Assembly (NCBI GenBank): GCA_024234975.1
Contig: JACKNH010000004.1
Location: 150,310 to 214,309 of the forward strand
DNA from: Gammaproteobacteria bacterium
GTDB taxonomy: Bacteria > Pseudomonadota > Gammaproteobacteria > Ga0077536
DNA length: 64,000 nt
Direction: 5' to 3'
Of the stretch, positions 1 through 16,474 are shown one piece after another. The position numbers were made by a program, and so were the translations under genes. Below the pieces are notes generated by a model. That model was not told the origin of the DNA and made no database searches. It saw only the letters and a program-made list of their open reading frames with translations. Positions within the stretch are counted from its first letter, which is position 1, and every line of letters begins with the position of its first letter.

Positions 1-2
1 AG

Positions 3-3000
3 GGCAGCGATCTGCTGAATTATCTCTTTGCTGACCCGACATCAAACTCCGATTCGGGTGTCCAACCCGAAGTCACCCGCGAAATCGTATTCATCGACGA
101 AACGGTGCCGGATTACCAGATACTGGTCGACCAGATTACGCACGGCAGTGCTGCAGGCACCGCGTTGGAAATTGTCACGATCGATTCAACCGGTGACGGC
201 ATTGCGCAGATCTCGGAGTTCCTGAGTGGCAAGGACGGCATTGATGCGGTTCATATCATCACCCACGGGCAGGCGGGTGAACTGAGCGTCGGTGGTTCGG
301 AATTGAACCTGGCCTCGCTGGATCAATATCGTGCCAGCCTGTCGCAATGGGCCGCTGCGCTGTCGGATACGGCGGACATCCTGCTGTACGGGTGCGACGT
401 CGCGGCTGATGCAGATGGGCGGGCGCTGGTGGAAGCAATTGCCGCCATTACCGGTGCAGATGTCGCGGCATCGGAAGATCGGACCGGCGCCACGACCGTC
501 GGCGCCGATTGGCAACTCGAATTCACGGCAGGCGCCGTGACAACGAGCGCACTTCGGGCCGCGGACGACGCCTGGGGGTACAGCCTGGCATCGGTCACGG
601 TGTCGACCACCAATGACATCGTTGACGGCAACACCGGCAGTATCGCGCTGCTGATCGGCTCGCCAGGCGCGGACGGCAAGATTTCACTGCGCGAGGCTGT
701 CATCGCTGCCAACCAGGATGCCGCGGCAGATACGATCAATCTGGCCAGCGCCACTTACACTTTGACGCGGGCCGGTGATGCCGAGCAATCCGCTTCGACG
801 GGTGACCTGGACATCGTGAACCCGTTGACCATAGTGGGTACAGGTGTCGACGGTTCGGTCATCAACGCCAGTGCGATGAATGATCGTGTCTTTGAAGTGC
901 TCGCCAGTGGTTCGCTGACACTGTCCGGGTTGACAGTCACAGGCGGCAATGGCGACTCCTATTCAGGGGGGGCGGTTCGCAATGCGGGCGTGCTCTCTGC
1001 AACCGACGTGGTGTTCGCCGCAAATCAGATCGGCAACGCAGACGGCGGGACCATCGATTCCAGCGGAACAACGACGCTGACGCGGGTCTCCATCATCGAC
1101 AGCGTGGCGAATCGTGGCGGCGCCCTGAACATCACGGGCGGCACGACCACGGTTCAAAATGCCACGTTCAGCAACAACACCTCGGCTTTCGATGGCGGCG
1201 CTATCCGGATCCAGGCCGGAACGCTGAACATCTCGTTCTCCACCGTCGCCGGCAATACGGCCACCGGCGGTTGGGGCGGCGCGCTCGAAATCGCCGGTGG
1301 TACGGTGAATACCAAGGCGACAATCTACGCCGACAATACCTCACTGTATGGCGGTGATATTCGTGGCACGCTGGCCAGCCAGGGATTGAACATCATTGAG
1401 AACAGTGCCGGTATCACCGGCGGAACGGCCGTTAATGACTTCCTCGGATCCGATCCATCGCTGGGCACACTCACGCATTCCGCTACCGGGCAGTACGTAC
1501 ATCCGATTGACGCCAGCAGCATCGCTGCGGATGCAGGCGTACCGTTGCCTCCGAGTACCGATCAACGCAATGTCACGCGCGACGGCTCAGCCGATATCGG
1601 CGCCTACGAATATTCCCATGCGGTTGCGCCTTCGTCGCTTTCCGTTGTTCAGAACAGTGATGGGGGACTCAGCCTCAATGAGAACGGCGGTAACAGCGCC
1701 TACCTGAAATCTGTCGACCCGGCGGTGATGTTCAGCGGCCTGACGGCGACCACGGTGGAAGTCGACTTCTCGATCTCCACGCCGGCGTCTTCCGCCACTG
1801 TTCTGTTATCGCTCGCCTCTGCGACCGATCCGGATGAACTGGCCCTCGGCATCCTCGCCGATGGCCACATTGCCATGCAGCTCGGGTCCGGATACCAGCA
1901 ATCCGCTTCGACCTATAACGAATTGTTCGACGGCCAACGTCATCGTCTGTCGGTAAGCTGGGTGAACAGTAGCGGCACTGTCCGCTTCTATGTGGATGGT
2001 GTGCTGAAGGAAACCATCGCGGGTTATCGCACCGGTGTCACCCTCGACGGCGCGGGCTCTATCCTGACCATCGGACAGGACCAGGACACGCTGGGCGGAG
2101 GCTTCGATCCTGCCCAGACATTCAAAGGCGTTGTCTACGACGTACGTGTGTTCAACGATGTCCGAACCGATCAGGAAGTGTTTTCATACAACGGCGTTGA
2201 TTTGCCGCACGACGCTGCCGGGCTGATTGGCTACTGGAAATTCGACAACCTGACGGCGGACGGCGAAGTCGCTGATCTCGTCGCCGGATTCAAGCTTCAG
2301 CTTGCACAAATCTCATCCAGTGCGTTTACCGCAGATGACGGATCGCTCGTCCTGAGTGTTGATGAACATTCCGCCATCGGTACTGTTGTTGGCACGGTTG
2401 CCGCCAGCGATGCGGAACGCGAGGGCTTGATCGCCATCCTGCTGGGAGCAGATCCCGATCTGACCTACAGCAGCATCACCGGCAAGTTCTACAAGCTGGT
2501 AAACACCTCGACCAGCTGGACCGGCGCCACTACCGCCGCGCAAAGTCATACCTTGAACGGCATCAGTGGTGAACTGGTATCCATCCATTCGGCGGTCGAA
2601 AACGAGATCATCCACGATTACGCCGATGCCGTCGGAAATGCGGTCTGGCTGGCCGGCTCTGACGTGCTCGCCGAGGGCCAGTGGCGCTGGTATTCCGCCG
2701 GTGTTGCCGGGGACACCTTCTGGTCCGGAACCGGCAGCGGGTATGCGCCGGACCATGTCTATCAGAATTGGTACACGAACGAACCCAATAACGATACCGG
2801 GATTGATGTCGCTGGCGAAAACTATCTCTACATGTCGTCGGATGGCACGTGGAACGATGTCTTTGCCGGCGCCGGCTGGCCCGTCTATGTCGTGCAGTGG
2901 GACGCTGACGAAGTCCTCGACGCCACGCAATCCCTGATCTATGCGATTACGGCGCAGACCAGCGCCGGTGCGTTTTCAATCGATGCGGACAGCGGTGTCA

Positions 3001-5279
3001 TCCAGGTCGCCGACGGATCACTGCTGGATTTCGACAGCGACGCGACGCACACGCTGACGGTTCAGGTCACCGACGCCGACGGCAATCAATTCAGCGATGC
3101 CTTCACCATCGCGTTGAACGACACGATGGCGGTGCAGTTTTCAGCTTATCCGATTGCCACCCAGAATCTCATCGAAGATGGCTCACTGACTTTCAGCAAT
3201 GGCAACGGAAATGCCGTCACGGTGTCCGATTCAACGGCGACGAATGCGACCCTGCAATTGGAATTGGCTGTAGCAAATGGTCGCATCAATCTGGCCACGC
3301 TGGCCGGGCTCGCCGTCGTGGCAGGCGCCGATGGCACATCATCGGTGGTCGTCAGCGGCAGCGAGTCCGCACTCAACGCCGCACTGGAAGGCATGGTCTA
3401 CACACCAACTGCTGACTTTGCCGGCACCGACTCGCTGGCGGTGAAGGTGGCGCTGGTGACCGACCTGCTGGCGCACTACGAATTCGAATCGGCTGGTGCA
3501 AACGACAGCAGCGTCGGTGGCCTGTATGACGGAGTCATCACCGGCGACGCCGCAGTGACGACGGATGCCGAACGCGGTTCGGTGCTTACGCTCGACGGTA
3601 CCGGCGATGGGGTCACCGTCACTGGCAGGTATGGTGATCCAACGACCGTGACGTTGGCAGCATGGGTCAATCTCACCAGTGCCGACACCTATGGCTCGCA
3701 TGTCATTTCGATTGGAAACGCGGTCGTGCTGGCACTGGACAGACCCAATGCCGGTGAGGGCGTCCATGGTTCGTTCTACAACGGCACCTCGTACAAATCC
3801 ACTACCAGCGGTCGCTTCATCGCCACCGACGGCTGGCATCACGTGGCTTACGTCATTGACGACGCCAACGATTTGCAGCAGCTGTACATCGATGGCGAAC
3901 TGGTCAGTGAAACGGCCTACACCGCAAGCGTTTCGTATGCCACGGCCACGACCGATTCGGCGATCGGCACCGATCCGGGCGGCAGCAGCGACTATGACTT
4001 CGCTGGCGATATGGATGATGTCCGGATATATACCAGGGCGCTGACAGCAGACGAAGTTCACGCGCTGGCGATGGACGTCGCGGCCGCCGAAGTGGCCATC
4101 AGTCTTGATGTCAGTGCCGTCAACGACGCGCCGGTCGCCGATCATGGTGGTGCCTACGCGATCAATGAAGGCGAAGCACTCTTCCTTGACGCCAGCGGTT
4201 CGTCGGATGCCGAAGGGGATACGCTGACCTACCGCTGGGACCTGGACAATGACGGTCAGTACGATGACCTCGTCACGACGGCCGCCTCGAACAGTGTTTC
4301 ATGGGCAACATTGAGCGGGCTGGGGGTGGATGATGACGGCGTCTACACCATTGGCCTTCAGGTGACCGACGGCAATGGCGGGGTGACCAGCACGTCGACG
4401 AGCTTGACCATTTCGAATGTCGCGCCAGTGTTGACGGCCACCGGTAGCGCGACAACCCCCGGTGGCGCGGTATACACGCTGACCCTTTCCGACATCGACC
4501 CCGGAAACGACACCATCAGCAGTTGGATCGTCAATTGGGGTGACGGCGCGGTAGACACGTACGCTGGCGACCCCTCGTCGGTGACGCACACCTATGCCAA
4601 TGTGCTTGCCGGCCGCACGCTGGATATCACAGTCAGCGCGACGGATGAGGATGGCCAGTATTTCGAGGCCGTCATGCTGGTACCTGCCTATGGTGGTGAC
4701 TACGTCAATCAGTATGGCGGGTATGACGGCACGCTCGCAGGGAGTTTTGCACCGTCCACGGACGGCATTGCCGGGCACGCCAACATCGTTGTGATGCCTA
4801 CCGGCAATTACCTGGTCAGTGGTGTGGATTCCGGCAATATCGTTGAATACCAGCCGAACGGTGCGCTGGTGGGTGATTTCGTCGCTGCCGTTGATACGCA
4901 TCTGGCCAATCCCGGCGGACTGGCCTATGGACCGGACGGCAACCTTTACGTCGCGGACTACGGGGCCGGCAAAGTCGTCCGCTTCGATGGCACGACTGGC
5001 GCCTTCATCGACGACTTCGTCGCTTCGGGCCTGAGCAATCCGCTGGGACTGGAGTTCGGGCCGGACGGCAAGCTGTACGTGGCCAACCGTGGCAGTGCAG
5101 GCGTGCTGCGCTACGATGCGGGCAGCGGTGCGCTGGATGCCGGTTTTGTCGTCGGCAGTATCAGCAATGCCGAAGACCTGACATTCGGCCCCGATGGAAA
5201 TATTTACGGGCGGTACCGGCGGCGTGATTCGCGTCAATGCGACGACCGGCGCGACCGCGACGTTCATCGCCAACGGTAG
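3..5279 (+). CDS. Giant adhesin fragment 1: DUF4347-like module, parallel beta-helix repeats, LamG, C-type lectin, cadherin-like, LamG, two PKD-like, NHL repeats
   Basis: Beta-helix entry motif ISLREAVIAANQDAAADTINLA, followed by repeated GGA[VLI]xN/I...N[TQ] turns (GGAVRNAG, GGALNITGG, GGAIRIQAG, GGALEIAGG). LamG-like WHHVAYVIDD...LYIDGELV...DMDDVRIYTRALTADEV. PKD-like TLTYRWDLDNDGQYDD...YTIGLQVTDGNGG. NHL-like GPDGNLYVADYGAGKVVRFDGTTGA and GPDGKLYVANRGSAGVLRYDAGSGA. Confidence 0.8.
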   Translation, partial: GSDLLNYLFADPTSNSDSGVQPEVTREIVFIDETVPDYQILVDQITHGSAAGTALEIVTIDSTGDGIAQISEFLSGKDGIDAVHIITHGQAGELSVGGSELNLASLDQYRASLSQWAAALSDTADILLYGCDVAADADGRALVEAIAAITGADVAASEDRTGATTVGADWQLEFTAGAVTTSALRAADDAWGYSLASVTVSTTNDIVDGNTGSIALLIGSPGADGKISLREAVIAANQDAAADTINLASATYTLTRAGDAEQSASTGDLDIVNPLTIVGTGVDGSVINASAMNDRVFEVLASGSLTLSGLTVTGGNGDSYSGGAVRNAGVLSATDVVFAANQIGNADGGTIDSSGTTTLTRVSIIDSVANRGGALNITGGTTTVQNATFSNNTSAFDGGAIRIQAGTLNISFSTVAGNTATGGWGGALEIAGGTVNTKATIYADNTSLYGGDIRGTLASQGLNIIENSAGITGGTAVNDFLGSDPSLGTLTHSATGQYVHPIDASSIAADAGVPLPPSTDQRNVTRDGSADIGAYEYSHAVAPSSLSVVQNSDGGLSLNENGGNSAYLKSVDPAVMFSGLTATTVEVDFSISTPASSATVLLSLASATDPDELALGILADGHIAMQLGSGYQQSASTYNELFDGQRHRLSVSWVNSSGTVRFYVDGVLKETIAGYRTGVTLDGAGSILTIGQDQDTLGGGFDPAQTFKGVVYDVRVFNDVRTDQEVFSYNGVDLPHDAAGLIGYWKFDNLTADGEVADLVAGFKLQLAQISSSAFTADDGSLVLSVDEHSAIGTVVGTVAASDAEREGLIAILLGADPDLTYSSITGKFYKLVNTSTSWTGATTAAQSHTLNGISGELVSIHSAVENEIIHDYADAVGNAVWLAGSDVLAEGQWRWYSAGVAGDTFWSGTGSGYAPDHVYQNWYTNEPNNDTGIDVAGENYLYMSSDGTWNDVFAGAGWPVYVVQWDADEVLDATQSLIYAITAQTSAGAFSIDADSGVIQVADGSLLDFDSDATHTLTVQVTDADGNQFSDAFTIALNDTMAVQFSAYPIATQNLIEDGSLTFSNGNGNAVTVSDSTATNATLQLELAVANGRINLATLAGLAVVAGADGTSSVVVSGSESALNAALEGMVYTPTADFAGTDSLAVKVALVTDLLAHYEFESAGANDSSVGGLYDGVITGDAAVTTDAERGSVLTLDGTGDGVTVTGRYGDPTTVTLAAWVNLTSADTYGSHVISIGNAVVLALDRPNAGEGVHGSFYNGTSYKSTTSGRFIATDGWHHVAYVIDDANDLQQLYIDGELVSETAYTASVSYATATTDSAIGTDPGGSSDYDFAGDMDDVRIYTRALTADEVHALAMDVAAAEVAISLDVSAVNDAPVADHGGAYAINEGEALFLDASGSSDAEGDTLTYRWDLDNDGQYDDLVTTAASNSVSWATLSGLGVDDDGVYTIGLQVTDGNGGVTSTSTSLTISNVAPVLTATGSATTPGGAVYTLTLSDIDPGNDTISSWIVNWGDGAVDTYAGDPSSVTHTYANVLAGRTLDITVSATDEDGQYFEAVMLVPAYGGDYVNQYGGYDGTLAGSFAPSTDGIAGHANIVVMPTGNYLVSGVDSGNIVEYQPNGALVGDFVAAVDTHLANPGGLAYGPDGNLYVADYGAGKVVRFDGTTGAFIDDFVASGLSNPLGLEFGPDGKLYVANRGSAGVLRYDAGSGALDAGFVVGSISNAEDLTFGPDGNIYGRYRRRDSRQCDDRRDRDVHRQR
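81..533 (+). other. DUF4347-like N-terminal module of the giant protein
   Basis: The pattern EIVFIDETVPDYQILVDQI...EIVTIDSTGDGIAQISEFL...IDAVHIITHGQAGELSVGG...ADILLYGCDVAADADGRALVEAIAAITGADVAASEDRTG matches my recollection of the DUF4347 family signature. His codon at 264-266, Cys codon at 393-395. Confidence 0.6.
2487..2903 (+). other. C-type lectin-like domain inside the giant protein
   Basis: FYKLVNTSTSWTGATTAAQSHTLNGISGELVSIHSAVENEII...WLAGSD...WRW...NWYTNEPNNDTGIDVAGENYLYMSSDGTWNDVF. EPN is at nt 2781-2789 and WND at 2850-2858. Confidence 0.7.
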
Positions 5280-7155
5280 CGGTGGCCTGGGGCTGGCCGC
5301 CGGTGTCGATTTCGGTCCGGATGGCCATCTCTACGTGGCCGATCAGACAAACAACGTCGTTCGCCGCTACGATGGCGCCAGTGGCGCCTACATCGACGAT
5401 TACGCCGTCGGGGTTGCCGGTCCTGCCTATACGGACTTCACGCCTGACCAACGCGTTGCCGTCACCTATGCCAATCAAAGCCCCACGATCGCCACGAATA
5501 CCGGCGCGACAGTTGACGAAGGTTCAACGGCCAACATCATCACGACGGCGATGCTGGATGAGGGCGATCCAGACGATGATGGCGCGGGTCTGACCTATAC
5601 GATTACGGCAAACGTCACGCATGGAACGCTGAAACTCAGTGGTGCCGCCATCGGGCTCAACGATACGTTCTCGCAGGATGATATCGACAACAACCGACTG
5701 ACCTACGACCACGATGGCAGCGAGACCACCAGTGACAGCTTTGGCTTCTCACTGGCCGATGGCGGTGAAAATGGCTCGACGCCGGCGACAGGTACCTTCA
5801 CGCTCACGGTGACACCGGTCAACGACGCCCCGACAATAACTTCATCGGGCACCGTCAATGCCGCTGAAAACCAGACCGTGGTGGGCACCGTCACGGCCAC
5901 CGATGCCGATGGTGACACGCCGACCTTCAGCCTGACCGGTGGTGCGGATCAGGGACTGTTCGCGATCGATACGAACACCGGTGCGCTGAGCTTCGTCGTG
6001 GCGCCCGACTTCGAAGTCCGGACTGACGCAAACACCGACGGCGTCTATGTAGTTCAGGTGACCGCTGCCGACGGCAATGGCGGATCCACCAACCAGCTCG
6101 TCAACGTGACCGTGACGGACACCAATGACGCCCCGGTCCTTGTCCCGTATGCACCGACCTACAACACAACCGAAGGCGCCGGAGCCTTTGCCGCGACGGT
6201 GGCCATGTTGTTGCAGTCCAGTGTATCGGATGCGGATACGGGAGCGGTGGAAGGTATCGCCATCTTCGGCATCAATTCCGCGGTAGGAACCTTCGAGTAC
6301 ACAACGGATGGTTCCACCTGGATATCTGTCGGAACAGTCTCATCCAACAGTGCATTGCTATTACGTGCCACGGATTCGCTGCGGTTCACGCCGACCGGTG
6401 ATGTCGGCGGCCAGATGACGATCAATTACCGCGCATGGGATCAGAGCAGCGGTACGGCGGGTTCCAAGGTTGACGCATCGACGACAGGCGGAACGTCAGC
6501 CTTCAGTACAGCTTCGGATGTGGTCACGGTCAATGTCACCGGAATCAACGATGCGCCCGCCGGCACCGACAAATCGATCAACATCAACGAAAACGCGATC
6601 TATACCTTCACCACCGCCGACTTCGGGTTCACTGATGTCGACGGCAACAACCTGGATAGCGTCTGGTTCATGTCAGTGCCGGCCAATGGTGCGCTGAAGT
6701 TCAATGGCGCAACCTTTGCGGCCAACAACTACGTGGTGGCGAGTGACATCGTCGACGGGCTGCTGACTTTCCAGCCAGCGACCAATGCCACCGGAACGCC
6801 CTATACCAGCTTCACGTTCCAGGTCCAGGATGATGGTGGCACGGCCAACGGCGGACTGAACCGCGACGCCACCAGCAACACGATCACAATCAACGTCGCC
6901 AACATCAACAATGCCCCGGTCATCGACAGCGGCGGTCTTTCATTACCGGCAGTGATTCTGCCTGGCGATTCGCCTTCCGGGAAACTTGTTGGCGACGTGT
7001 TGACCGACGTGAACTGGTCCGACGCCGACGTCGGCGCCTTGAAAGGCATCGCCATCGTGGCGAAGTCCGGCGCCGGCACCTGGCAATATTCGACCTCGGT
7101 GGCAGTACCTGGGCCAATATCAGCGGTGTGTCGGCGACCACGGCGTTGTTGTTGA
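5194..7155 (+). CDS. Giant adhesin fragment 2: remaining NHL repeats, then cadherin/Ig-like modules joined by [VTI]NDAP linkers
   Basis: GGTGGVIRVNATTGA and FGPDGHLYVADQTNNVVRRYDGASGA continue the NHL series from fragment 1 in a different frame. These are followed by LTVTPVNDAPTITSSG..., VTVTDTNDAPVLVP..., VNVTGINDAPAGTD... and INVANINNAPVIDSGG. Confidence 0.8.
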   Translation: MEIFTGGTGGVIRVNATTGATATFIANGSGGLGLAAGVDFGPDGHLYVADQTNNVVRRYDGASGAYIDDYAVGVAGPAYTDFTPDQRVAVTYANQSPTIATNTGATVDEGSTANIITTAMLDEGDPDDDGAGLTYTITANVTHGTLKLSGAAIGLNDTFSQDDIDNNRLTYDHDGSETTSDSFGFSLADGGENGSTPATGTFTLTVTPVNDAPTITSSGTVNAAENQTVVGTVTATDADGDTPTFSLTGGADQGLFAIDTNTGALSFVVAPDFEVRTDANTDGVYVVQVTAADGNGGSTNQLVNVTVTDTNDAPVLVPYAPTYNTTEGAGAFAATVAMLLQSSVSDADTGAVEGIAIFGINSAVGTFEYTTDGSTWISVGTVSSNSALLLRATDSLRFTPTGDVGGQMTINYRAWDQSSGTAGSKVDASTTGGTSAFSTASDVVTVNVTGINDAPAGTDKSININENAIYTFTTADFGFTDVDGNNLDSVWFMSVPANGALKFNGATFAANNYVVASDIVDGLLTFQPATNATGTPYTSFTFQVQDDGGTANGGLNRDATSNTITINVANINNAPVIDSGGLSLPAVILPGDSPSGKLVGDVLTDVNWSDADVGALKGIAIVAKSGAGTWQYSTSVAVPGPISAVCRRPRRCC

Positions 7156-8057
7156 ATGACACCACGTTGGTTCGCTACCTGCCGTCGACTGCTGGCGAGG
7201 AAGCCGTCCTGACCTTCCGTGCGTGGGACAGGACATCGGGGCCTTCATCGACCGAAGCGACACCCAGCTATCGTAATCCCGGCACTGGTGGCGGCACCTC
7301 CGCCTTCAGTGCGGAAATCGGCACCGTGGTGCAGTACGTGTCGTCGGTGAATACCCTGGGCATTACCACTGTCGGCAACGTCGCGTTGCCCAGCGGAACT
7401 TCCGGTCTGACAGGATGGACTGCCGGCACGGTTGTCGAAATTGCCGATCCGAATTTCGCCGTCGAACCCGGTACATCCTCCGGCACGTTTGCGGCCGTCG
7501 TTGATTTTTCGACAATGGCCGCCGACAGCTATGCCGGCATCAGCGATCTGCACTACGTCAGTCGCGACACCGTGGTGGGTACAACGGTGCCGTACCAGTT
7601 GCTGAAGGGTGACCTGCTGGTGTCGTTCCATGTCGCTGAAACGCTCACCAGTGTGAACACACTGAATGCGACCAGCGGAAGCATTGTGGTGTTCCGTCCG
7701 ACCGTATTGGGTGATTACAGCGCTGGCACGTGGACCACTCTGCTGGAGAATCCACTCGGTGGGCAGATCGGCGGTTTCACGCTGATCGAAAAGACCACGA
7801 CGATTGGTCAGGACCCAGGTCGCAGCCGGCAACTTCCTGATGGCAGAAACTCATTCCGGATCTTGCAGTATGTCGCGGTCTCGGGCACCGGAGATAGGTT
7901 CCACTGCGCTGACGCAGACATTGCTCGTCGAGGTCTCGATATCGATCTCGGACACGTAACTGTCGGCTATTCCGGGACTGAAGCTGGTCGATTCCCCTGT
8001 AACCATCGCGAACCGGACCATCGGCACGGGCTCGATACTGTTCGCTTTGAGCAGTGA
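7128..8057 (+). CDS. Giant adhesin fragment 3; its last ~80 codons look out of frame
   Basis: SATTALLLNDTTLVRYLPSTAGEEAVLTFRAWDRTSG parallels the earlier SNSALLLRATDSLRFTPTGDVGGQMTINYRAWDQSSG. After ~7810 the translation turns Arg/His-rich nonsense, while frame 1 gives plausible protein (TQVAAGNFLMAETHS...). Confidence 0.6.
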   Translation: MSATTALLLNDTTLVRYLPSTAGEEAVLTFRAWDRTSGPSSTEATPSYRNPGTGGGTSAFSAEIGTVVQYVSSVNTLGITTVGNVALPSGTSGLTGWTAGTVVEIADPNFAVEPGTSSGTFAAVVDFSTMAADSYAGISDLHYVSRDTVVGTTVPYQLLKGDLLVSFHVAETLTSVNTLNATSGSIVVFRPTVLGDYSAGTWTTLLENPLGGQIGGFTLIEKTTTIGQDPGRSRQLPDGRNSFRILQYVAVSGTGDRFHCADADIARRGLDIDLGHVTVGYSGTEAGRFPCNHREPDHRHGLDTVRFEQ

Positions 8058-9402
8058 TGACCTTGCCGTCGGCAGCAGCGCGCAGATATCGATGACGAAG
8101 TACGACGTCGCTGTTCTCACCGTCACCAGCACTGAACTCGACCCGGGAGCGGTATCCCAGGCGACAGCGACATTGTTGCTGGAAGGTGCGGACGTCGGAT
8201 TGGAGACGACCAGTGGTGGCCAGGGCGCGACCGCCGAAGCCGTCGGTGGTCTGACACTGTTCTACAGTGACGTTGCAACCGCGTACGTACCTATCGCCTC
8301 TGATGACACCGGCACCGTTGACGAAGCCGGGTCAGTATTGATCGACCTCGCTGCGAATGACTGGGATGGTGACGATGGTTTGAATCTGGCGTCCATCCAG
8401 GTGATCTCCGCGCCAGCCAATGGCAACGTTGTCGTCAATGCAAACGGCACGGTGACGTACACCCATAACGGTTCTGAAACGACCGCAGATTCCTTCACCT
8501 ACCGGATCGATGACGCAGGCGGTACACACAGTAACGTCGCCACCGTAACCCTCACAGTTACGCCGACCAACGATCCGCCGACCGGCGTGCCGGTCGTCAC
8601 CGGTACGACGACCGAAGATCAGACGTTGACGGCGGACACCAGCGGCATCGCCGATGCCGATGGCCTCGGCAGCTTCAGCTACCAGTGGTACCTCGACGGC
8701 GGTGCGATCGGCGGCGCCACGGCGAGCACATTCGTCCTCGGCGATACCGATGTCGGCAAGACGATCACCGTGCAGGTCAGCTATCAGGACGGGCAGGGCT
8801 TCAACGAATCCCTGACCAGTGTCGGTGTTGGTCCGATTGCCGCCGTTAACGACACGCCGACAGGCTTACCGGTCATCACCGGTACGGCCACCGAAGATCA
8901 AACGCTGACCGCGGATACCAGCGGCATCGCCGATGTCGATGGTCTCGGCGCGTTCAGCTACCAGTGGTACCGCGATGGCGGGGCGATCGGCGGCGCCACG
9001 GCCAGTACTTTCGTCCTCGGCGATACCGATGTCGGCAAGACGATCACCGTGCAGGTCAGCTATCAGGACGGGCAGGGCTTCAACGAATCCCTGACCAGCG
9101 TCGGTGTTGGTCCGATTGCCGCGGTCAACGATACACCGACCGGCTTACCGGTCATCACCGGTACGACGACAGAAGACCAGACGCCGACCGCGGATACCAG
9201 CGGCATCGCCGATGCGGGGGTACCAGCACCTGGTTACCAGTGGTATCGCGATGGCGGCGCGATCGGCGGCGCCACGGCGAGCACTTTCGTCCTGCGCGTA
9301 CGATGTCGCAACGACGATCAACTGCAGGTCAGCTATCAGGACGGCAGGGCTTCAACGAATCGCCGACCAGTGCGTCGGTGTTGGTCCGATTGCTGCCGTT
9401 AA
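8047..9402 (+). CDS. Giant adhesin fragment 4: pre-repeat module plus repeat units 1-3
   Basis: This frame is open back to 7960 and is preceded by an in-frame TAA at 7957-7959 (ISISDT*LSAIPGLKLVDSPVTIANRTIGTGSILFALSSDD). It contains NDPPTGVPVVTGTTTEDQTLTADTSGIADADGLGSFSYQWY... repeats. Confidence 0.7.
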   Translation: MSSDDLAVGSSAQISMTKYDVAVLTVTSTELDPGAVSQATATLLLEGADVGLETTSGGQGATAEAVGGLTLFYSDVATAYVPIASDDTGTVDEAGSVLIDLAANDWDGDDGLNLASIQVISAPANGNVVVNANGTVTYTHNGSETTADSFTYRIDDAGGTHSNVATVTLTVTPTNDPPTGVPVVTGTTTEDQTLTADTSGIADADGLGSFSYQWYLDGGAIGGATASTFVLGDTDVGKTITVQVSYQDGQGFNESLTSVGVGPIAAVNDTPTGLPVITGTATEDQTLTADTSGIADVDGLGAFSYQWYRDGGAIGGATASTFVLGDTDVGKTITVQVSYQDGQGFNESLTSVGVGPIAAVNDTPTGLPVITGTTTEDQTPTADTSGIADAGVPAPGYQWYRDGGAIGGATASTFVLRVRCRNDDQLQVSYQDGRASTNRRPVRRCWSDCCR

Positions 9403-9601
9403 CGACACGCCGACAGGCTGACGCGTCATCACCGGTACGGCCACCGAAGATCAAACGCTGACCGCGGATACCAGCGGCATCGCCGATGTCGATGGCCTGG
9501 GCACCTTCAGCTACCAGTGGTACCGCGACGGCGGGGCGATCGGCGGCGCCACGGCGAGCACATTCGTCCTTGGCGATGTCGATGTCGGCAAGACGATTAC
9601 C

Positions 9602-10744
9602 GTGCAGGTCAGCCAGGACGGCAGGGCTTCAACGAATCCTGACCAGTGTCGGCGTCGGTCCGGTCAACGACGCTTGACAGGCTTACCGGTCATCACCGGT
9701 ACGGCCACCGAAGATCAAACGCTGACCGCAGACACCAGCGGCATCGCCGATGTCGATGGTCTGGGCAGCTTCAGCTACCAGTGGTACCGCGATGGCGGGG
9801 CGATCGGCGGTGCCACGGCGAGCACTTTCGTCCTTGGCGATGCCGATGTCGGTAAGACCATCACAGTGGCGGTCAGCTATCAGGACCAACAGGGCTTCAA
9901 CGAATCGCTGACCAGCGTCGGTGTTGGTCCGATTGCCGCCGTTAACGACACGCCGACAGGCTTACCGGTCATCACCGGTACGGCCACCGAAGATCAAACG
10001 CTGACCGCGGATACCAGCGGCATCGCCGATGCCGATGGCCTCGGCACCTTCAGCTACCAGTGGTATCGCAACGGTGGCGCGATCAGCGGCGCCACGGCGA
10101 GCACATTCGTCCTTGGCGATACCGATGTCGGTAAGACGATTACCGTGCAGGTCAGCTATCAGGACGGGCAGGGCTTCAACGAATCGCTGACCAGCGTCGG
10201 CGTCGGTCCGATTTCGGCCGTCAACGATGCTCCCACCGGATTGCCGGTCATCACCGGTACGACGACAGAAGATCAGACGCTGACCGCAGACACCAGTGGT
10301 ATCGCCGATGTGGATGGTCTGGGCAGCTTCAGCTACCAGTGGTACCGCGACGGTGGCGCGATCAGCGGTGCCACGGCGAGCACTTTCGTCCTTGGCGATG
10401 CCGATGTCGGTAAGACGATTACCGTGCAGGTCAGCTATCAGGACGGGCAGGGCTTCAACGAATCGCTGACCAGTGTCGGCGTCGGTCCGATTTCGGCCGT
10501 CAACGATGCTCCCACCGGATTGCCGGTCATCACCGGCACGGCCACCGAAGATCGGACGCTGACCGCAGACACCAGTGGTATCGCCGATGATGGTCTGGGC
10601 AGCTTCAGCTACCAGGCGGTACCGCGACGGTGGCGCGATCAGCGGCCACGGCGAGCACTTTCGTCCTTGGCGATACCGATGTCGGCAAGACCATCACAGT
10701 GGCGGTCAGCTATCAGGACGGGCAGGGCTTCAACGAATCCATGA
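9602..10744 (+). CDS. Giant adhesin fragment 5: repeat units 5-8
   Basis: From ~9670 the translation is clean: GLPVITGTATEDQTLTADTSGIADVDGLGSFSYQWYRDGGAIGGATASTFVLGDADVGKTITV... The frame is lost in unit 8 near 10590-10640. Confidence 0.7.
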   Translation: MQVSQDGRASTNPDQCRRRSGQRRLTGLPVITGTATEDQTLTADTSGIADVDGLGSFSYQWYRDGGAIGGATASTFVLGDADVGKTITVAVSYQDQQGFNESLTSVGVGPIAAVNDTPTGLPVITGTATEDQTLTADTSGIADADGLGTFSYQWYRNGGAISGATASTFVLGDTDVGKTITVQVSYQDGQGFNESLTSVGVGPISAVNDAPTGLPVITGTTTEDQTLTADTSGIADVDGLGSFSYQWYRDGGAISGATASTFVLGDADVGKTITVQVSYQDGQGFNESLTSVGVGPISAVNDAPTGLPVITGTATEDRTLTADTSGIADDGLGSFSYQAVPRRWRDQRPRRALSSLAIPMSARPSQWRSAIRTGRASTNP

Positions 10745-11115
10745 CCAGCGTCGGTGTTGGTCCGATTGCCGCCGTTAACGATACGCCGACAGGCTTACCG
10801 GTCATCACCGGTACGACGACAGAAGATCAGACGCTGACTGCGGATACCAGCGGCATCGCCGATGTCGATGGCCTGGGCAGCTTCAGCTACCAGTGGTACC
10901 GCGACGGCGGGGCGATCGGCGGCGCCACGGCGAGCACATTCGTCCTTGGCGATACCGATGTCGGTAAGACCATCACAGTGACGGTCAGCTATCAGGACGG
11001 GCAGGGCTTCAACGAATTGCTGAACAGTGTCGGCGTCGGTCCGATTTCGGCCGTCAACGATGCACGACCGGCTTACCGGTCATTACCGGTACGGCCACCG
11101 AAGATCAAACGCTGA
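10630..11115 (+). CDS. Giant adhesin fragment 6: tail of unit 8 and unit 9
   Basis: ASTFVLGDTDVGKTITVAVSYQDGQGFNESMTSVGVGPIAAVNDTPTGLPVITGTTTEDQ... The frame is lost at the start of unit 10 (~11062). Confidence 0.65.
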   Translation: MARSAATASTFVLGDTDVGKTITVAVSYQDGQGFNESMTSVGVGPIAAVNDTPTGLPVITGTTTEDQTLTADTSGIADVDGLGSFSYQWYRDGGAIGGATASTFVLGDTDVGKTITVTVSYQDGQGFNELLNSVGVGPISAVNDARPAYRSLPVRPPKIKR

Positions 11116-11255
11116 CCGCCGACACCAGCGGCATCGCCGACGTCGATGGCCTCGGCGCATTCAATTACCAGTGGTATCGCAATGGCAGTGCGATCAACGG
11201 CGCTACCACCAGTACCTTCGTACTCGGCGATGCGGATGTCGGCACGACGATCACA

Positions 11256-13325
11256 GTGCAGGTCAGCTATCAGGACGGTCAGGGCTTCAACGAGTCACTA
11301 CTGAGCACGGGCGTCGGCCCGATCACCGCCGTGAACGATACCCCCATCGGTCTGCCCGTCATCACCGGTACGGCCACCGAAGATCAGACATTGACGGCGG
11401 ACACCAGTGGCATTGCCGACGTCGATGGCCTCGGCAGCTTCAGCTACCAGTGGTTCCGCGACGGTACCGCGATCAATGGCGCTACCGCCAGTACGTTCGT
11501 ACTCGGCGATGCGGATGTCGGCACGACGATCACAGTGCAGGTCAGCTATCAGGACGGTCAGGGCTTCAACGAGTCACTACTGAGCACGGGCGTCGGCCCG
11601 ATCGCCGGCATAAACGATGCGCCACTCGGCCAGCCGGTTGTTACAGGCATCACCGCCGTGGACCAGCTACTCACAGCAGATACCAGCGGTATCAGTGACG
11701 TGGATGGTCTGGGTACGTACAGCTACCAGTGGTTCCGCAGCGGTACCCTGATAGCGGGTGCGACCAATGAAACCTATCTGCTGACGAATGCCGATGTCGA
11801 CACATTCCTGAGCGTGCAAGTCAGCTATACCGATGGGCAGGGCACGGAAGAATCGTTGCAGAGCACGCTGGTCGGCCCGATTCAACCGCTGTTACCGCCA
11901 AATAATGCGCCGGTGTTCGACAGCGCGCCGGTGACAAATGTCACTGCGGGAACAGCCTACGTCTACCAGGTCGCAGTCACCGACGTCGACGTCATCGACA
12001 ACCTGACGATTACCGCGGCCAGTCTGCCAGGCTGGTTAGCCTTGACCGATAACGGCGATGGCACGGCCACGCTCAGTGGCGTGCCGCTCACCGCAGACGT
12101 CGGCACCTATGACATAGTGTTGTCCGTCAGTGACGGACAAGTGAGTGTCGAGCAGGGATTCGCTCTGATTGTTGATATCGATCCCAATCAAACTCCCGTC
12201 ATCGAATCTGATGGTGGCGGCACGGCCGCGACGCTGGCCGTCAGCGAAGGTACCGCACTGGTCACCGCGGTCGTGGCAACCGATGCCGATGGTGATGCGC
12301 TGACCTACAGCATCACCGGTGGTGCGGATGCGGCGGCATTCCAGATCGACGCGCAAACCGGCGCGTTGCAGTTCATCAGCCCGGTGCCGGCCTACTTCTC
12401 CCCTGCCGATGCTGACGGCGACAACACCTATCTGGTGACCGTTGCCGCAAGTGATGAGCACGGCGCGATCACCGCCCAGGCACTGTCGGTGGTGGTCGGC
12501 CCCAGCCCGTTGAATCCGGTGCTCGCCGAAGCCATTGCCGCTTCCAACCAGATTTCGCCCGAGGCGGACTCCGGCACTGCGTATGAGACCGTAGCCCAAT
12601 CCACACCGGGTACCGGGGGCGCAGCGGCGGCATTGGCTGACGCTGTCATCAGCCAGACGACCGGCAGCGGCGCGGCCAATACGGGGTCGTCGCAGGATTC
12701 GGATACTGAACAACTTACCGAGCAGGTTTTGCTTGCCGAATTGGCGCAAGCGCCGGGCAGCCTGCAAGACCTTATTGATGACACTGTTGGCCAGGACGAG
12801 GTCAAGTCTGTCGACGGTGTTGCCGATGCCGTCACTGCGGATGAACGGCCGCCGACTGATAACACAACCAATGACAATGCGCCCGCCCAGGCATCTGAAC
12901 TGGTCCGGGCCACGCTGCTGGCGGGTGCGTCAGGTATGCACCTTGACCTGACCCAACTGGAAACAGCCTTGAATACCACCAGTTTCAACAACGCGCTGGA
13001 CGAAATGCGGCGGGCGCTGACCGAGGTCAGCGAAAGCAAAGGCAAATCGATGGACCTGCGTGCTGAAGTCGCTACCGGCATCGGAATGAGTCTGACGGCC
13101 GGTATCGTTCAGTGGGTTCTGCGTACCGGCTCATTGATGTTCACGCTGGTCTCGACCATGCCGGTCTGGCGGTTCTTCGACCCACTACCGATCTTCGCGG
13201 GCGCACGCGAGGCTGATGCAGTAATGGTTGAAGGCGCCGACGAGAAAGCCACCGCCGTTGCACCTGCCGGAGAAGTCGAAACCCTGTTCGACAAAGCAGC
13301 AGAGCAAGAGGAACCTGCTGAATGA
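11256..13325 (+). CDS. Giant adhesin fragment 7 (frame open from ~11070): repeat units 10-12, Ig/cadherin-like modules, low-complexity linker, C-terminal hydrophobic anchor and acidic tail
   Basis: Dystroglycan/cadherin-like ITAASLPGWLALTDNGDGTATLSGVPLTADVGTYDIVLSVSDG and ATDADGDALTYSITGGADAAAFQIDAQTGALQF. An Ala/Gly/Ser/Thr/Asp-rich linker follows. The protein ends ...VATGIGMSLTAGIVQWVLRTGSLMFTLVSTMPVWRFFDPLPIF...AAEQEEPAE. Confidence 0.8.
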   Translation: MQVSYQDGQGFNESLLSTGVGPITAVNDTPIGLPVITGTATEDQTLTADTSGIADVDGLGSFSYQWFRDGTAINGATASTFVLGDADVGTTITVQVSYQDGQGFNESLLSTGVGPIAGINDAPLGQPVVTGITAVDQLLTADTSGISDVDGLGTYSYQWFRSGTLIAGATNETYLLTNADVDTFLSVQVSYTDGQGTEESLQSTLVGPIQPLLPPNNAPVFDSAPVTNVTAGTAYVYQVAVTDVDVIDNLTITAASLPGWLALTDNGDGTATLSGVPLTADVGTYDIVLSVSDGQVSVEQGFALIVDIDPNQTPVIESDGGGTAATLAVSEGTALVTAVVATDADGDALTYSITGGADAAAFQIDAQTGALQFISPVPAYFSPADADGDNTYLVTVAASDEHGAITAQALSVVVGPSPLNPVLAEAIAASNQISPEADSGTAYETVAQSTPGTGGAAAALADAVISQTTGSGAANTGSSQDSDTEQLTEQVLLAELAQAPGSLQDLIDDTVGQDEVKSVDGVADAVTADERPPTDNTTNDNAPAQASELVRATLLAGASGMHLDLTQLETALNTTSFNNALDEMRRALTEVSESKGKSMDLRAEVATGIGMSLTAGIVQWVLRTGSLMFTLVSTMPVWRFFDPLPIFAGAREADAVMVEGADEKATAVAPAGEVETLFDKAAEQEEPAE
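13069..13170 (+). other. Predicted C-terminal hydrophobic (one or two helix) membrane anchor of the giant protein
   Basis: VATGIGMSLTAGIVQWVLRTGSLMFTLVSTMPVW is the only long hydrophobic stretch in the visible protein. It is followed by RFFDPLPIFAGARE and an acidic tail. Confidence 0.5.
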
Positions 13326-16300
13326 TTCTGCGGTTGTTACAGTCCCCGGTAATCCGACTGAGTCTTGCCTTGGCCATGATGACCAGCGGCTTGTTGCTGG
13401 TTGCCGATCTTGTCGGAATTTTTCCCAATCAGCGCGCCGTGATGCTGGACGCGCGCAAGACCGTTTCCGAGTCAATTGCGATCCAGACGGTTGCCGCAGT
13501 GGAATCGGGCGAGACGGACATGTTGTCCGAGGTGATGAATTCGGTCACCGCGCGTGATCCGTCTGTCAAATCAATGGCGCTACGCGACAAATCCGGCGCC
13601 ATCGTGACCGCCGCCGGAGACCATGACAAGTTCTGGACCAGTAAGACTGGCGAGGCATCCAACGAAACACAGGTGCAGGTGCCTGTCTACAATGGCGAGA
13701 ACCGGTGGGGTACGTTGGAGCTTGCTTTCACACCCATTGGTGGCGACCGTTCGCTGAACGGGCTGCCACGATCATTTCTGGTTGTTCTGCTGTTCATTTC
13801 CTGTGCCGGTTTTGCCGCGAACTTCCTGTTGTTGCGCAGGGCCTTGCGAGAGCTGGACCCGAGTGCCGTGATCCCGCCGCGGGTGCAGGCGGCGTTGGAT
13901 GCGCTTGCCGAAGGACTGGTCATCATCGATTCCCGCGAACGGATACTGCTGGCCAACCAGGCGTTTTCGCGCAAGGTTGAACGCCCGCAATCGATGCTGG
14001 TCGGCCAGACCATGGCGACGCTGAACTGGCAACCGTATGACGACGAGGAAGCGCTGCCGGAAGTACTGCCGTGGTCGGAAGTTCTGCGTGATAACACGGT
14101 CGATACCGGCGTTCATCTGCGCATGGAAACCGCGACCGGCACGATGCTCAGCTTCGCCGTCAATGCAGTCCCGGTGACCGCGGGTGACGGCTCGGTACGC
14201 GGAGCATTGACGACATTCAACGATCTGACCCAGGTGGAACTGGCCTACCGCGAACTCAGTCGCGCCAACCAGAAGCTCGAGTCCGCAAAGCGCGACATTG
14301 CGCGTCAGAACCAGGAATTGCTGGTGCTGGCCACGCGCGATGCCATGACTGGTGTGCTCAATCGACGCGCGTTGTTCGAGGCGTTCGAAAATCTGCTGGT
14401 GGAAAGTGTCACCGGCGGCATTCCGTTGTGCTGCGTGATGATCGACATCGACAAGTTCAAATCGATTAACGACAGCTACGGTCACGGCGTGGGCGACAAA
14501 GTCATCAAGGCGGTGGCGGCTATTCTGAATGACACGGCACGCGCGACGGACATCGTCGGCCGTTATGGTGGTGAGGAATTCTGCGCGTTGTTGCCAGGCA
14601 CCGATCTCAAGCAGGGCGAAGTGCTGGCGGAACGAATCCGGGTGGCGGTGCAGGATGGTGTCGGTGGCAAAGCCAATACGCCGTTCCAGGTGACGGTGAG
14701 TCTCGGAGTATCAAGCACCGAATTCGGGGCGCACGAACCGATGGATTTGTGTAACCAGGCTGACCGTGCGCTCTATGTCGCCAAGGAAAGCGGCCGTAAT
14801 CGCGTGGTGCCCTGGAGTGATGTCGCTGAATATCTGGGCAGCGATACCGTCACCAGGGCGGAGAAACCTGCTGAACCGCCGGCGCCCGCCAAAGCCGCAC
14901 CTGGCGAATCCTTCCCACGCGAGAGCGAGTTGGCCGTACGGATCGAACAGCTGGAACGCGCCTTGAGCGAAAGCGAGCGTCAACGCGCACGGGCGCTGAT
15001 GGAACATCCGCACGGCGGTGGCACCAGTGTTTCGAGTTGGGCGCTGCTGCAGGACAGGCTCGAGCAATCCTTGATGCGCACCCGGCGCAGTAGTAAACAC
15101 GTGGCCGTGGTTGCCATCGAAATCGACGCCTACAGGACAGTCAACTCCACGCTGGGCATGACCAGTGGCGAGAAGATGATTGACGCGGTCAATGAAAGGT
15201 TGGCAGGAAATCTGCGCGAAATCGATACCATCTCCATGCCGCAGGACGGTGACCCAGGCGTCGTGCTGACCCGCCTGACCAACGATGAGTTCGTGCTCGT
15301 GCTGGCCGATTTCGACGACAAGGCCATGGTGCCGCGGGTGGTCGAGCGTCTGGGCAGCGTGTTCCGCGATCCGTTCGATATCGACGGCTCGGAAATCTTC
15401 GTGACGCCGCGGCTGGGTGTGGCCGTTTATCCCGGTGACGGCAAGAATGCGACCGAACTGGTGGCCAACGCCAACGCCGCATTGCGTTTCGCCCGTCAGC
15501 GTTCAGATCGCACAACCTATCACTTCTATTCGAGCGAAATGAATGAGAAAGCCCGTGAACAACTGCGGGTTGAAAACGAGTTGCGGCATGCGATCGAGCG
15601 GGAAGAGTTTGTCCTGCATTACCAACCCAGAATCGATCTCGCTTCCGGCGCGATCACCGGCATGGAAGCGTTGCTGCGCTGGAATCATCCCGCGCACGGC
15701 ATGATCTTCCCGGACAAGTTCGTGCCCATGGCCGAGCGCCTCGGGTTGATCACGCAGATCGGAGAGTGGGTGGCTGGCGCGGCATGCCGCCAGGTTGACG
15801 CATGGTCCGCGAACGGCTTTGGCGAGCTGGAGCTTGCTATCAATGTCTCGCCGATTCAGCTGCGCGACGACAAGTTCCTGCACAAGCTGCGCGAAAAGGT
15901 CGCGAAGTATGGAGTCCCCGCTGAGCGTATCGAGTTGGAAATCACCGAATCGGTAGTGATCGATAACATTGACGTTGTGCTCGACCTGATGCGCAAGCTT
16001 GCTGACGAAGGCTTCAAGCTGGCACTGGACGATTTCGGCACGGGCTATTCATCGCTGGGCTATCTGCGACGGTTGCCACTGCATCGACTGAAGATCGATC
16101 GATCTTTCCTGCGCGGGTTGGGGCAGAACATGACCGACTATGCCATCGTCAGTTCGGTCATTGAAATGTCACACTCGCTGGGGATGCGGGTGGTCGCCGA
16201 AGGCATCGAGAACGAAGAGCAATGGGTAGCCTTGTGTGAGCTCGGTTGCGACGAAGGGCAGGGCTATCTGTGGAGCCGTCCGGTCAGCGTGGAAGACGCA

Positions 16301-16474
16301 GTGACCCTGCTGGAGAAAAATTCCGATTTGCGGCAGAAGGTGCGCATGATTCACGCCAGTCGCGCCGAGCAATTTGAGAGTGCGCGTCGGATTGCCATCA
16401 AGGGCGTACTCAACGACGCCGGTCCGCTCGATGTGGAGACACTGATGCGCGACAAGATCATCCGTTTGAATTGA
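13322..16474 (+). CDS. Membrane-bound c-di-GMP turnover protein: TM-periplasmic region-TM, PAS, GGDEF (intact), second degenerate GGDEF, EAL
   Basis: The ATG at 13322 overlaps the giant gene TGA (ATGA). I-site RATD plus GGEEF lie at nt 14540-14581. The degenerate second GGDEF (RLTNDEF) is at 15272-15292. EAL motifs are MEALLRW (15662-), DDFGTGYSSLGYL and QGYLWSRP. A coiled-coil-like linker (ELAVRIEQLERALSESERQRA) sits between the two GGDEF domains. Confidence 0.9.
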   Translation: MILRLLQSPVIRLSLALAMMTSGLLLVADLVGIFPNQRAVMLDARKTVSESIAIQTVAAVESGETDMLSEVMNSVTARDPSVKSMALRDKSGAIVTAAGDHDKFWTSKTGEASNETQVQVPVYNGENRWGTLELAFTPIGGDRSLNGLPRSFLVVLLFISCAGFAANFLLLRRALRELDPSAVIPPRVQAALDALAEGLVIIDSRERILLANQAFSRKVERPQSMLVGQTMATLNWQPYDDEEALPEVLPWSEVLRDNTVDTGVHLRMETATGTMLSFAVNAVPVTAGDGSVRGALTTFNDLTQVELAYRELSRANQKLESAKRDIARQNQELLVLATRDAMTGVLNRRALFEAFENLLVESVTGGIPLCCVMIDIDKFKSINDSYGHGVGDKVIKAVAAILNDTARATDIVGRYGGEEFCALLPGTDLKQGEVLAERIRVAVQDGVGGKANTPFQVTVSLGVSSTEFGAHEPMDLCNQADRALYVAKESGRNRVVPWSDVAEYLGSDTVTRAEKPAEPPAPAKAAPGESFPRESELAVRIEQLERALSESERQRARALMEHPHGGGTSVSSWALLQDRLEQSLMRTRRSSKHVAVVAIEIDAYRTVNSTLGMTSGEKMIDAVNERLAGNLREIDTISMPQDGDPGVVLTRLTNDEFVLVLADFDDKAMVPRVVERLGSVFRDPFDIDGSEIFVTPRLGVAVYPGDGKNATELVANANAALRFARQRSDRTTYHFYSSEMNEKAREQLRVENELRHAIEREEFVLHYQPRIDLASGAITGMEALLRWNHPAHGMIFPDKFVPMAERLGLITQIGEWVAGAACRQVDAWSANGFGELELAINVSPIQLRDDKFLHKLREKVAKYGVPAERIELEITESVVIDNIDVVLDLMRKLADEGFKLALDDFGTGYSSLGYLRRLPLHRLKIDRSFLRGLGQNMTDYAIVSSVIEMSHSLGMRVVAEGIENEEQWVALCELGCDEGQGYLWSRPVSVEDAVTLLEKNSDLRQKVRMIHASRAEQFESARRIAIKGVLNDAGPLDVETLMRDKIIRLN

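Follow-up and report, generated by a model that had tools for sequence, protein, structure and literature searches.

We analyzed a 64,000-nucleotide stretch of the draft genome of a gammaproteobacterium (GCA_024234975.1, contig JACKNH010000004.1, here C4; C4:150310-214309, referred to as the window) and find that its first 13,325 nucleotides are the 3′ 13.3 kb of a single real giant gene that is broken in the assembly. We predict with reasonable confidence that its product is a single giant surface adhesin of the LEPR-XLL/DUF4347 class, very acidic and rich in repeats. The best overall explanation, which we also think rather likely, is an adhesin with an N-terminal leader, export by a neighboring gene cassette, a C-terminal membrane tether and an associated sensor. 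The export route is most likely the adjacent cassette, in a variant that lacks a SecA-like ATPase. The source genome comprises 3.9 Mb in 61 contigs and is 77% complete.

Frame 3 is open to nucleotide 3 and beyond, up to an ATG at window position -156 (C4:150153). The gene is 13,482 nt long (about 4,490 codons) and its first 52 codons lie outside the window; an earlier note, made from the window alone, had correctly stated that the first codons are absent. The part within the window consists of seven frame blocks with two in-frame stops. The plus-strand open reading frames (ORFs) tile as 3..5279 (frame 3), 5182..7155 (frame 1), 6834..8057 (frame 3), 7960..9402 (frame 1), 9422..10744 (frame 2), 10591..11115 (frame 1) and 10968..13325 (frame 3). 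A frame map based on the codon usage of intact genes from this genome gives one continuous coding signal, with a block order that agrees with the ORF tiling and with frame switches near 5200, 7090, 7850-7930, 9330, 10620 and 11040. The frame-joined protein has a pI of 4.05 and contains three cysteines. The gene and the lesions in its unique sequence are as follows.

1..13325, + strand: giant gene, ATG at -156 and TGA at 13323-13325 (ORFs, upstream DNA and frame map)
5203..5208, + strand: frame break 1 (frame 3 to frame 1), in unique sequence, spanned by single high-scoring segment pairs of 7 intact homologues
7096..7100, + strand: frame break 2 (frame 1 to frame 3), in a short G run (frame analysis)
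7820..7960, + strand: patch with low coding scores in all frames, with a change from frame 3 to frame 1 and an in-frame TAA at 7957-7959

Because the alignments of seven intact homologues cross break 1, it is a lesion within a single coding sequence rather than a junction between genes. Chimeric assembly from several unrelated genes would account for the many frame changes and for the low-coding patch at 7820-7960, but we find it barely credible: intact homologues are collinear across break 1, GC content is flat along the gene (0.59-0.63), and single homologous proteins combine leader, module set, 93-aa repeats and C-terminal motif. The frame map and the profile searches uphold the proposal of the earlier note that the window begins with a single giant mosaic adhesin-like gene.

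Modules were called by Pfam and NCBIfam profile searches of the seven frame pieces, which recovered nearly the full list that had been suggested from the letters.

84..563, + strand: DUF4347 (PF14252), 171.4 bits against a Pfam cut-off of 24.6, profile positions 1-154 of 164
600..1620, + strand: right-handed beta-helix region with CSLREA N-terminal, POMP-repeat and choice-of-anchor Q signatures (NF041518, 34.9 bits against 25; TIGR01376; TIGR04214)
1767..2183, + strand: first LamG/pentaxin-type jelly-roll module (PF00354, 57.5 bits; PF02210)
2565..2862, + strand: C-type lectin-like module, sub-threshold (PF00059, 20.5 bits against a cut-off of 22.6)
2898..3089, + strand: cadherin-type module (PF00028, 34 bits)
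3594..4061, + strand: second LamG module, Laminin_G_3 (PF13385, 127.5 bits, in 2 stretches)
4122..4700, + strand, end approximate: two PKD domains (PF18911, PKD_4, in 2 stretches; PF22352)
4902..5460, + strand: NHL-repeat region spanning frame break 1, which homologue alignments cross (PF01436)
5482..6849, + strand: Cadherin_3, Cadherin_4/Big_9 and Cadherin_5 modules with xNDAP linkers (Pfam; weak similarity to tandem-95 repeats)
8551..11873, + strand: twelve 279-bp (93-aa) Ig-like repeats (Tandem Repeats Finder and our own alignment; weak similarity to the ZirU family)
12492..13064, + strand: acidic low-complexity linker of about 190 residues (sequence and composition; no family match)

One repeat of the NHL region exceeds its threshold. 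The C-type lectin module is carried as a precomputed PF00059 match by several homologues with the same module set, which favors the call; the copy in this protein itself falls just short of the cut-off. Tandem Repeats Finder reports 10.9 copies of the 279-bp unit at 8568-11572 and the repeat alignment adds a divergent 12th unit that ends at 11873, so the twelve repeats counted earlier are all present. The searches returned no match to RTX, autotransporter, TpsA or LapG-type families, and none to a beta-barrel translocator, a two-partner secretion domain or a type IX secretion C-terminal domain. The frame-joined protein contains zero GGxGxD motifs and has no HemolysinCabind match in Pfam. The absence of RTX, autotransporter, TpsA and LapG-type features had been remarked on before, and it holds.

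The earlier note had called the module order unusual. The set of modules is not exceptional for this class. Intact homologues of 3,900-7,000 aa in Planctomycetes and Proteobacteria carry the same one: DUF4347, pentaxin/LamG, Lectin_C, cadherin, PKD, NHL and the 93-aa Ig-like repeat. Their annotations are generic (LamG-like, cadherin, VCBS, DUF4347 or tandem-95 repeat proteins). The highest identity, 71% across about 590 residues, is to a 6,975-aa protein (P0008) of the planctomycete Stieleria varia, whose 93-aa repeats are 57% identical; the comparisons cover window positions 4240-6000 and 8560-10370. Leader type and C-terminal motif are common to both proteins as well, and the likeness suggests that whole modules or genes have been exchanged between phyla. 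The homologue search with the frame-joined protein gave no relative more than 71% identical, which leaves no near-identical intact copy for comparison. LEPR-XLL/DUF4347 giants are common in Proteobacteria and Planctomycetes, where they go by generic domain names only, and the literature searched for either name does not address the secretion of DUF4347 or LEPR-XLL proteins.

The upstream DNA supplied the true start of the gene and neighboring putative export genes, both of which the earlier note had suggested looking for there. That note had called the export route not obvious. This no longer applies, as the 5 kb upstream of the window contain the leader and a cassette of adaptor, PqqD-M50-adaptor and adaptor genes.

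about -102 to -58, + strand: LEPR-XLL leader (NF012209, 23.3 bits against a cut-off of 17, residues 18-32)

The N-terminus has a basic stretch followed by IERRILLSAD, the local version of the LEPRxLLSA-type motif (about 24 residues) with which very large proteins of this family begin. The leader contains no hydrophobic signal-peptide core (the maximum KD19 hydropathy in the first 60 residues is 0.84). The giant gene is the fourth in a tight same-strand row, with the three cassette genes before it and the sensor gene after it; genes 1 and 2 overlap by ATGA, and the next gaps are 68 and 76 nt. The product of gene 1, 612 aa long, is a HlyD-type adaptor. Its cytoplasmic N-domain (about 370 residues) is homologous to the same region of the adaptor family, and the Pfam matches of the protein (E<=0.1) are HlyD_3, HlyD_D23 and biotin-lipoyl. 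In the 719-aa product of gene 2, a PqqD-like domain is fused to an HExxH M50 membrane protease and a HlyD adaptor region. Its HELGH motif is invariant across the 3 paralogues of the genome, and the protein matches NF041824 (RiPP-type intramembrane metalloproteases; RiPPs are ribosomally synthesized and post-translationally modified peptides) with E=6e-44 and is also homologous to NF058609. The first 125 residues are PqqD-like: PF05402 is matched (E<=0.1) by 44 of 46 family members (best E-value 1.1e-8), and the family profile aligns over its full length with the PqqD structure PDB 3g2b (E=0.0019). PqqD-like domains are the leader-peptide recognition elements of RiPP pathways. Gene 3 encodes a 288-aa HlyD adaptor with a signal peptide.

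Based on context and homology, the cassette is probably a dedicated exporter of the giant. All three M50-adaptor paralogues of this genome adjoin a LEPR-XLL giant, namely the one described here, one of 2,858 aa and one of 10,249 aa. An across-species pattern scan gave at least 585 related loci, of which 80 were examined in detail (full-length homology, E-values 1e-74 to 1e-181). The gene order adaptor, M50-adaptor, [SecA-like], adaptor is near-universal among the 80. Within 10 kb, a LEPR-type motif occurs at 21 and DUF4347 at 18 of them. Thirty-four loci extend 4 kb or more to either side of the cassette; at 19 of these a giant ORF lies directly next to it, counting as giant any ORF of 1,500 aa or longer and any of 150-600 aa or more that is truncated by the end of the locus sequence. 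In a set of 30 relatives, the cassette is present in each of the five genomes that encode a DUF4347 giant, and such a giant is absent from all 22 genomes without the cassette (hypergeometric p ~4e-4).

The other two sets of this genome lie on contig C6. At C6:91364-129837, an intact 10,249-aa LEPR-XLL ORF (91-122 kb) is followed by genes for an adaptor, an M50-adaptor, a 669-aa SecA-like ATPase and a small adaptor; this giant has neither DUF4347 nor the C-terminal membrane segment. At C6:275012-292253, the third cassette consists of an adaptor gene cut by the contig end, an M50-adaptor gene and the 2,858-aa DUF4347 giant, which ends in the same C-terminal motif as the protein in the window. 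Next comes a hybrid histidine kinase with the same sensor N-domain, then a response-regulator GGDEF-EAL protein and, about 4.5 kb on, a small adaptor.

A SecA paralogue of about 665 aa, with SecA_DEAD, preprotein-binding and P-loop domains, is encoded between the protease fusion and the last adaptor in 68 of the 80 loci. No SecA_DEAD gene is present between the M50-adaptor and third adaptor genes at this locus. The single SecA paralogue of the genome (C6:127007-129013) belongs to the cassette of the 10,249-aa giant. The SecA-less state is clustered on the tree of the M50-adaptor proteins: the one described here falls within a clade of seven rows (SH-aLRT 99) in which no SecA-like gene was found, although the contig of one member (L025) ends too soon downstream to judge.

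We propose that the PqqD-like domain would bind the N-terminal leader and the M50 protease would remove it. The three adaptors, with a TolC-family channel encoded elsewhere, would pass the chain N-terminus first across the envelope. The conserved C-terminal segment would stay in the inner membrane with its N-terminal side out and its C-terminal side in, and the acidic linker of about 190 residues would span the conduit. The anchored tail may contact the co-translated sensor, coupling adhesin display to the turnover of cyclic di-GMP (c-di-GMP). DUF4347, as a cysteine protease module of the toxin CPD/caspase-like type, may self-process the protein. Joined into one scheme, these steps would amount to a working, as yet unnumbered Gram-negative export route without an ABC (ATP-binding cassette) transporter or, in this clade, a dedicated SecA paralogue. 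In it, the PqqD-M50-adaptor reads and clips the leader, the three-adaptor/TolC conduit gives N-first exit, the inner-membrane tether reports occupancy or tension to the GGDEF-EAL sensor, and DUF4347 cleaves itself to mature or release the adhesin. We offer this complete scheme with low confidence.

Several observations weigh against the proposed export and anchoring. All functional roles given to the cassette and to its class of cargo rest on context and homology. The locus encodes no ABC, resistance-nodulation-division or major facilitator superfamily (MFS) pump and no SecA-like motor; the neighboring ORFs that were examined, over 15 kb upstream and immediately downstream, include no ABC transporter. 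The genome does have TolC-family genes, none of them next to any of the three cassettes. A GAF domain was not detected in the first adaptor (Pfam, E<=0.1). The gene 2 protein scores below the cut-off both for Peptidase_M50 (PF02163, 24.3 bits against 27.2) and for PF05402 (17.6 bits against 23.4). The closest in-family homologue, an intact protein of 4,619 aa (G002), is encoded 1.7 Mb from the cassette of its genome, and an Aquabacterium homologue is also unlinked to a cassette; linkage of cassette and giant is not obligatory. The C-terminal segment of this protein is itself only moderately hydrophobic (KD19 1.23). Finally, 8 of the 11 genomes with a SecA-less cassette have a SecA of canonical size only, and these genomes may be incomplete. 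With no pump or SecA-like motor at this locus, the energy source for one-step export is missing from the account.

The same SecA observations bear on a two-step route, in which housekeeping SecA/SecYEG moves the protein across the inner membrane as far as its C-terminal anchor, the role of the M50 protease is limited to clearing the leader, and the adaptors serve only outer-membrane passage or signaling. The SecA paralogue of most cassettes, with its DEAD, preprotein-binding and P-loop domains, implies a Sec-type motor; the clade described here lacks it, most genomes with a SecA-less cassette (8 of 11) have canonical SecA only, and site-2 proteases such as RseP clear remnant signal peptides. 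This route is nevertheless unlikely in our view. The leader has no hydrophobic core, and three dedicated HlyD adaptors, one of them fused to a protease, suit a continuous conduit over a periplasmic intermediate of 4,490 residues.

The C-terminal segment and the sensor gene are located as follows.

13065..13196, + strand: conserved C-terminal membrane segment, two hydrophobic stretches split by R-T-G and then PxWRxxDPLPI
13322..16474, + strand: membrane sensor of 1,050 aa with PAS, GGDEF, degenerate GGDEF and EAL domains (profile search)

An acidic tail closes the protein after PxWRxxDPLPI. The same segment ends the 2,858-aa paralogue on contig C6, the 4,619-aa homologue, the cassette-linked giants of two further loci (L037 and L039) and the Stieleria protein, and the motif occurs in 44 of 120 homologues that were chosen by the middle region only. 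The basic residues after the first hydrophobic stretch suggest the N-out/C-in orientation. A hydrophobic anchor had been proposed for this region: it stands as a conserved segment, which is the global hydropathy maximum in 4 of 5 homologues checked, and is weakened by the moderate value of the copy in this protein. Giants encoded upstream of their cassette do not have the segment, which therefore marks a cargo subclass.

The ATG of the sensor gene overlaps the TGA of the giant gene (ATGA). The first 200 residues of the sensor form a module of two transmembrane helices around a periplasmic domain, followed by a conserved juxtamembrane motif. This N-module is encoded directly downstream of anchored giants at 5 of 5 loci with readable downstream DNA, where the outputs are GGDEF(-EAL) at three and histidine kinase at two. 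The periplasmic domain has a predicted PDC-like fold (AlphaFold2 and Foldseek). The output domain of CdgS9, a LapD orthologue, is the second Foldseek match, weak and non-specific (E=5e-3), and a LapD-like reading of the periplasmic domain is an analogy only.

A conserved membrane segment in the cargo and a partner sensor would also suit a device for regulated intramembrane proteolysis, the activity for which the M50 family is best known; the protease would then cut the C-terminal segment of the giant to release the adhesin or a signal. We regard this as highly unlikely. Many cassette-linked giants, including the 10,249-aa paralogue of the same genome, keep the leader and have no C-terminal segment, and the PqqD-like domain on the protease matches leader binding. 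The predicted N-out/C-in orientation is not that of a usual substrate either, as site-2 proteases do not usually cut segments so oriented. Cassette export guided by the N-terminal leader is the reading that we retain.

The DUF4347 module lies just behind the leader. In 17 aligned sequences, His66, His70, Tyr-Gly-Cys113, Asp135, Ser139 and Asp141 are invariant and Gly71 is near-invariant; the invariant His codons are at 252-254 and 264-266 and the Cys codon at 393-395. The AlphaFold2 model (pLDDT 81.6) has Tce1 as its best Foldseek match (9qpe chain G, E=9e-6, TM-score 0.55-0.58). Legumain and caspases follow, with probabilities of 0.99-1.00 and TM-scores of only 0.35-0.40. The conserved His and Cys sit in the expected strands of the predicted model, which resembles clan-CD cysteine proteases and makes DUF4347 a candidate member of that clan. 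Tce1 (PA0256) is a DUF4347 protein (PMC8262886) and a putative cysteine protease whose His/Cys pair aligns with the toxin CPD dyad (PMC13323088). Judging from the model, it is reasonable to suppose, and nothing more, that the module may self-process the giant. Tce1, an H3 type VI secretion effector of P. aeruginosa, shares the Pfam family with the module; it is a small Hcp-loaded effector, whereas here DUF4347 is the first module of a giant adhesin behind a leader.

The cassette corresponds, in a SecA-less form, to the "secondary SecA_DEAD" locus of Kamneva, Poudel and Ward (2015), which contains GAF-HlyD, Peptidase_M50, SecA_DEAD and HlyD/biotin-lipoyl genes (e.g. MexAM1_META1p2402-2399; PMC4452313). 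The earlier note had allowed that the homologues might prove to be a characterized adhesin family with a known secretion system next door. Instead, the neighboring system has been described in silico only, in a report that named no cargo and called the biological role completely unknown (PMC4452313). Both loci have the same three adaptor/protease genes in the same order and no ABC transporter, and TolC is usually encoded elsewhere. They differ in that the published locus has a SecA_DEAD gene, whereas the copy described here has none and is tied to a LEPR-XLL giant and a downstream sensor.

LapA of Pseudomonas fluorescens (with LapBCE and LapD/LapG), SiiE and MpIBP, all exported by type 1 secretion, are likewise giant acidic adhesins with Ig/cadherin repeats, and the LapA-type systems share with this locus HlyD-family adaptors, TolC in trans and an adjacent inner-membrane GGDEF-EAL protein with a periplasmic domain. 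Their cognate ABC transporter, RTX repeats and C-terminal secretion signal are not found here. In contrast to LapA, the giant has an N-terminal leader, the M50 protease replaces LapG, and the C-terminal tether replaces the N-terminal retention plug. With RiPP and peptide exporters of the daptide and YydH/LiaK types, the cassette shares a putative PqqD-like leader-binding domain, a predicted HExxH intramembrane protease and the logic of an N-terminal leader. Unlike in those systems, the cargo is no peptide but a protein of about 4,490 residues, the protease carries a fused envelope adaptor, and the scores are far under the equivalog cut-offs (150.7 against 300 bits).

Tying the cassette and the giants together gives the hypothesis of a leader-guided, type-1-like export without an ABC transporter. 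To this the window adds a cassette clade without the SecA paralogue, a cargo subclass whose conserved membrane tether is genetically coupled to a c-di-GMP or kinase sensor, and a first cargo module with a predicted CPD/caspase-like protease fold.

The frame breaks of the giant gene are probably local consensus errors of the metagenome assembly and not real decay. The lesions, six net frame changes and two stops in all, fall in a single 5.8-kb stretch from about 5.2 to 11.0 kb, where their rate exceeds 2 per kb. The remaining 7.6 kb of the giant gene, including its last 2.3 kb, the three cassette genes and the sensor gene are lesion-free. Other long ORFs, about 47 kb in total, are intact: those of the two giants of 10,249 and 2,858 aa and of the sensor (1,050 aa), plus the opening 5.4 kb of the gene described here. 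Neither of the two intact giants has long tandem DNA repeats. Damage to the array is restricted to units 3-4 (9109-9646), unit 8 (10484-10758) and the boundary of units 9 and 10 near 11040. Two scrambled patches give unit 3 a load of 17 private substitutions and 8 indel columns, unit 4 has an in-frame TGA near 9420, and units 2, 6 and 7 have 0-1 private changes. The scrambled patches are 20-30 nt long and lie inside repeat units that are otherwise near-identical. We favor noise over neutral decay because the lesions are dense within 5.8 kb, absent elsewhere and patchy.

One observation tells against assembly noise as the cause. Three lesions (at about 5205, about 7097 and 7820-7960) fall outside the repeat array, in unique sequence where misassembly driven by repeats is not expected, and positions 1-8600 contain no DNA repeats to explain the breaks there. 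These lesions, together with the number of frame changes and stops, are what a genuine multiply disrupted pseudogene would show, with the cargo decayed and the cassette and sensor kept; the two other cargo/cassette sets of the genome could make this one dispensable. Such decay is possible but doubtful, given the clean sequence outside the 5.8 kb, scrambled patches that are unlike independent mutations, a coding signal that stays strong between the lesions, and giants that are similarly broken in other metagenome-assembled genomes (L052, L057 and L097). Assembly error thus remains our preferred explanation. The giants at these three loci adjoin a cassette and are split across frames, as is the SecA-like gene at L057. 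The assemblies name their contigs in contig_NNN style, and broken frames in giants may be an assembly artefact that recurs. Local consensus errors can make giant repeat genes in metagenome-assembled genomes look like pseudogenes, and caution is warranted.

No other assembly holding the exact product of the downstream sensor gene was found, and two exact-pattern scans of metagenomes across breaks 1 and 2, with variable gaps, returned no match. Overlapping same-strand stop-to-stop ORFs were tried as a proxy for frameshifts and dropped; they number 361 pairs genome-wide and do not discriminate, since true gene junctions yield the same signal. Over the roughly 140 nt of the patch at 7820-7960, the antisense coding score matches the sense score, and the patch may be a small inversion, noise or a real linker; the match does not show an inversion, because it is expected in GC-rich DNA.

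Upstream of the cassette, C4:136861-141377 (6552-11068 of the locus sequence L002) encodes a TonB-dependent receptor of 1,020 aa and an MFS transporter of 412 aa on the opposite strand. Two small plus-strand genes for signal-peptide proteins follow, one of them SnoaL-like, and this stretch has no evident link to the cassette.

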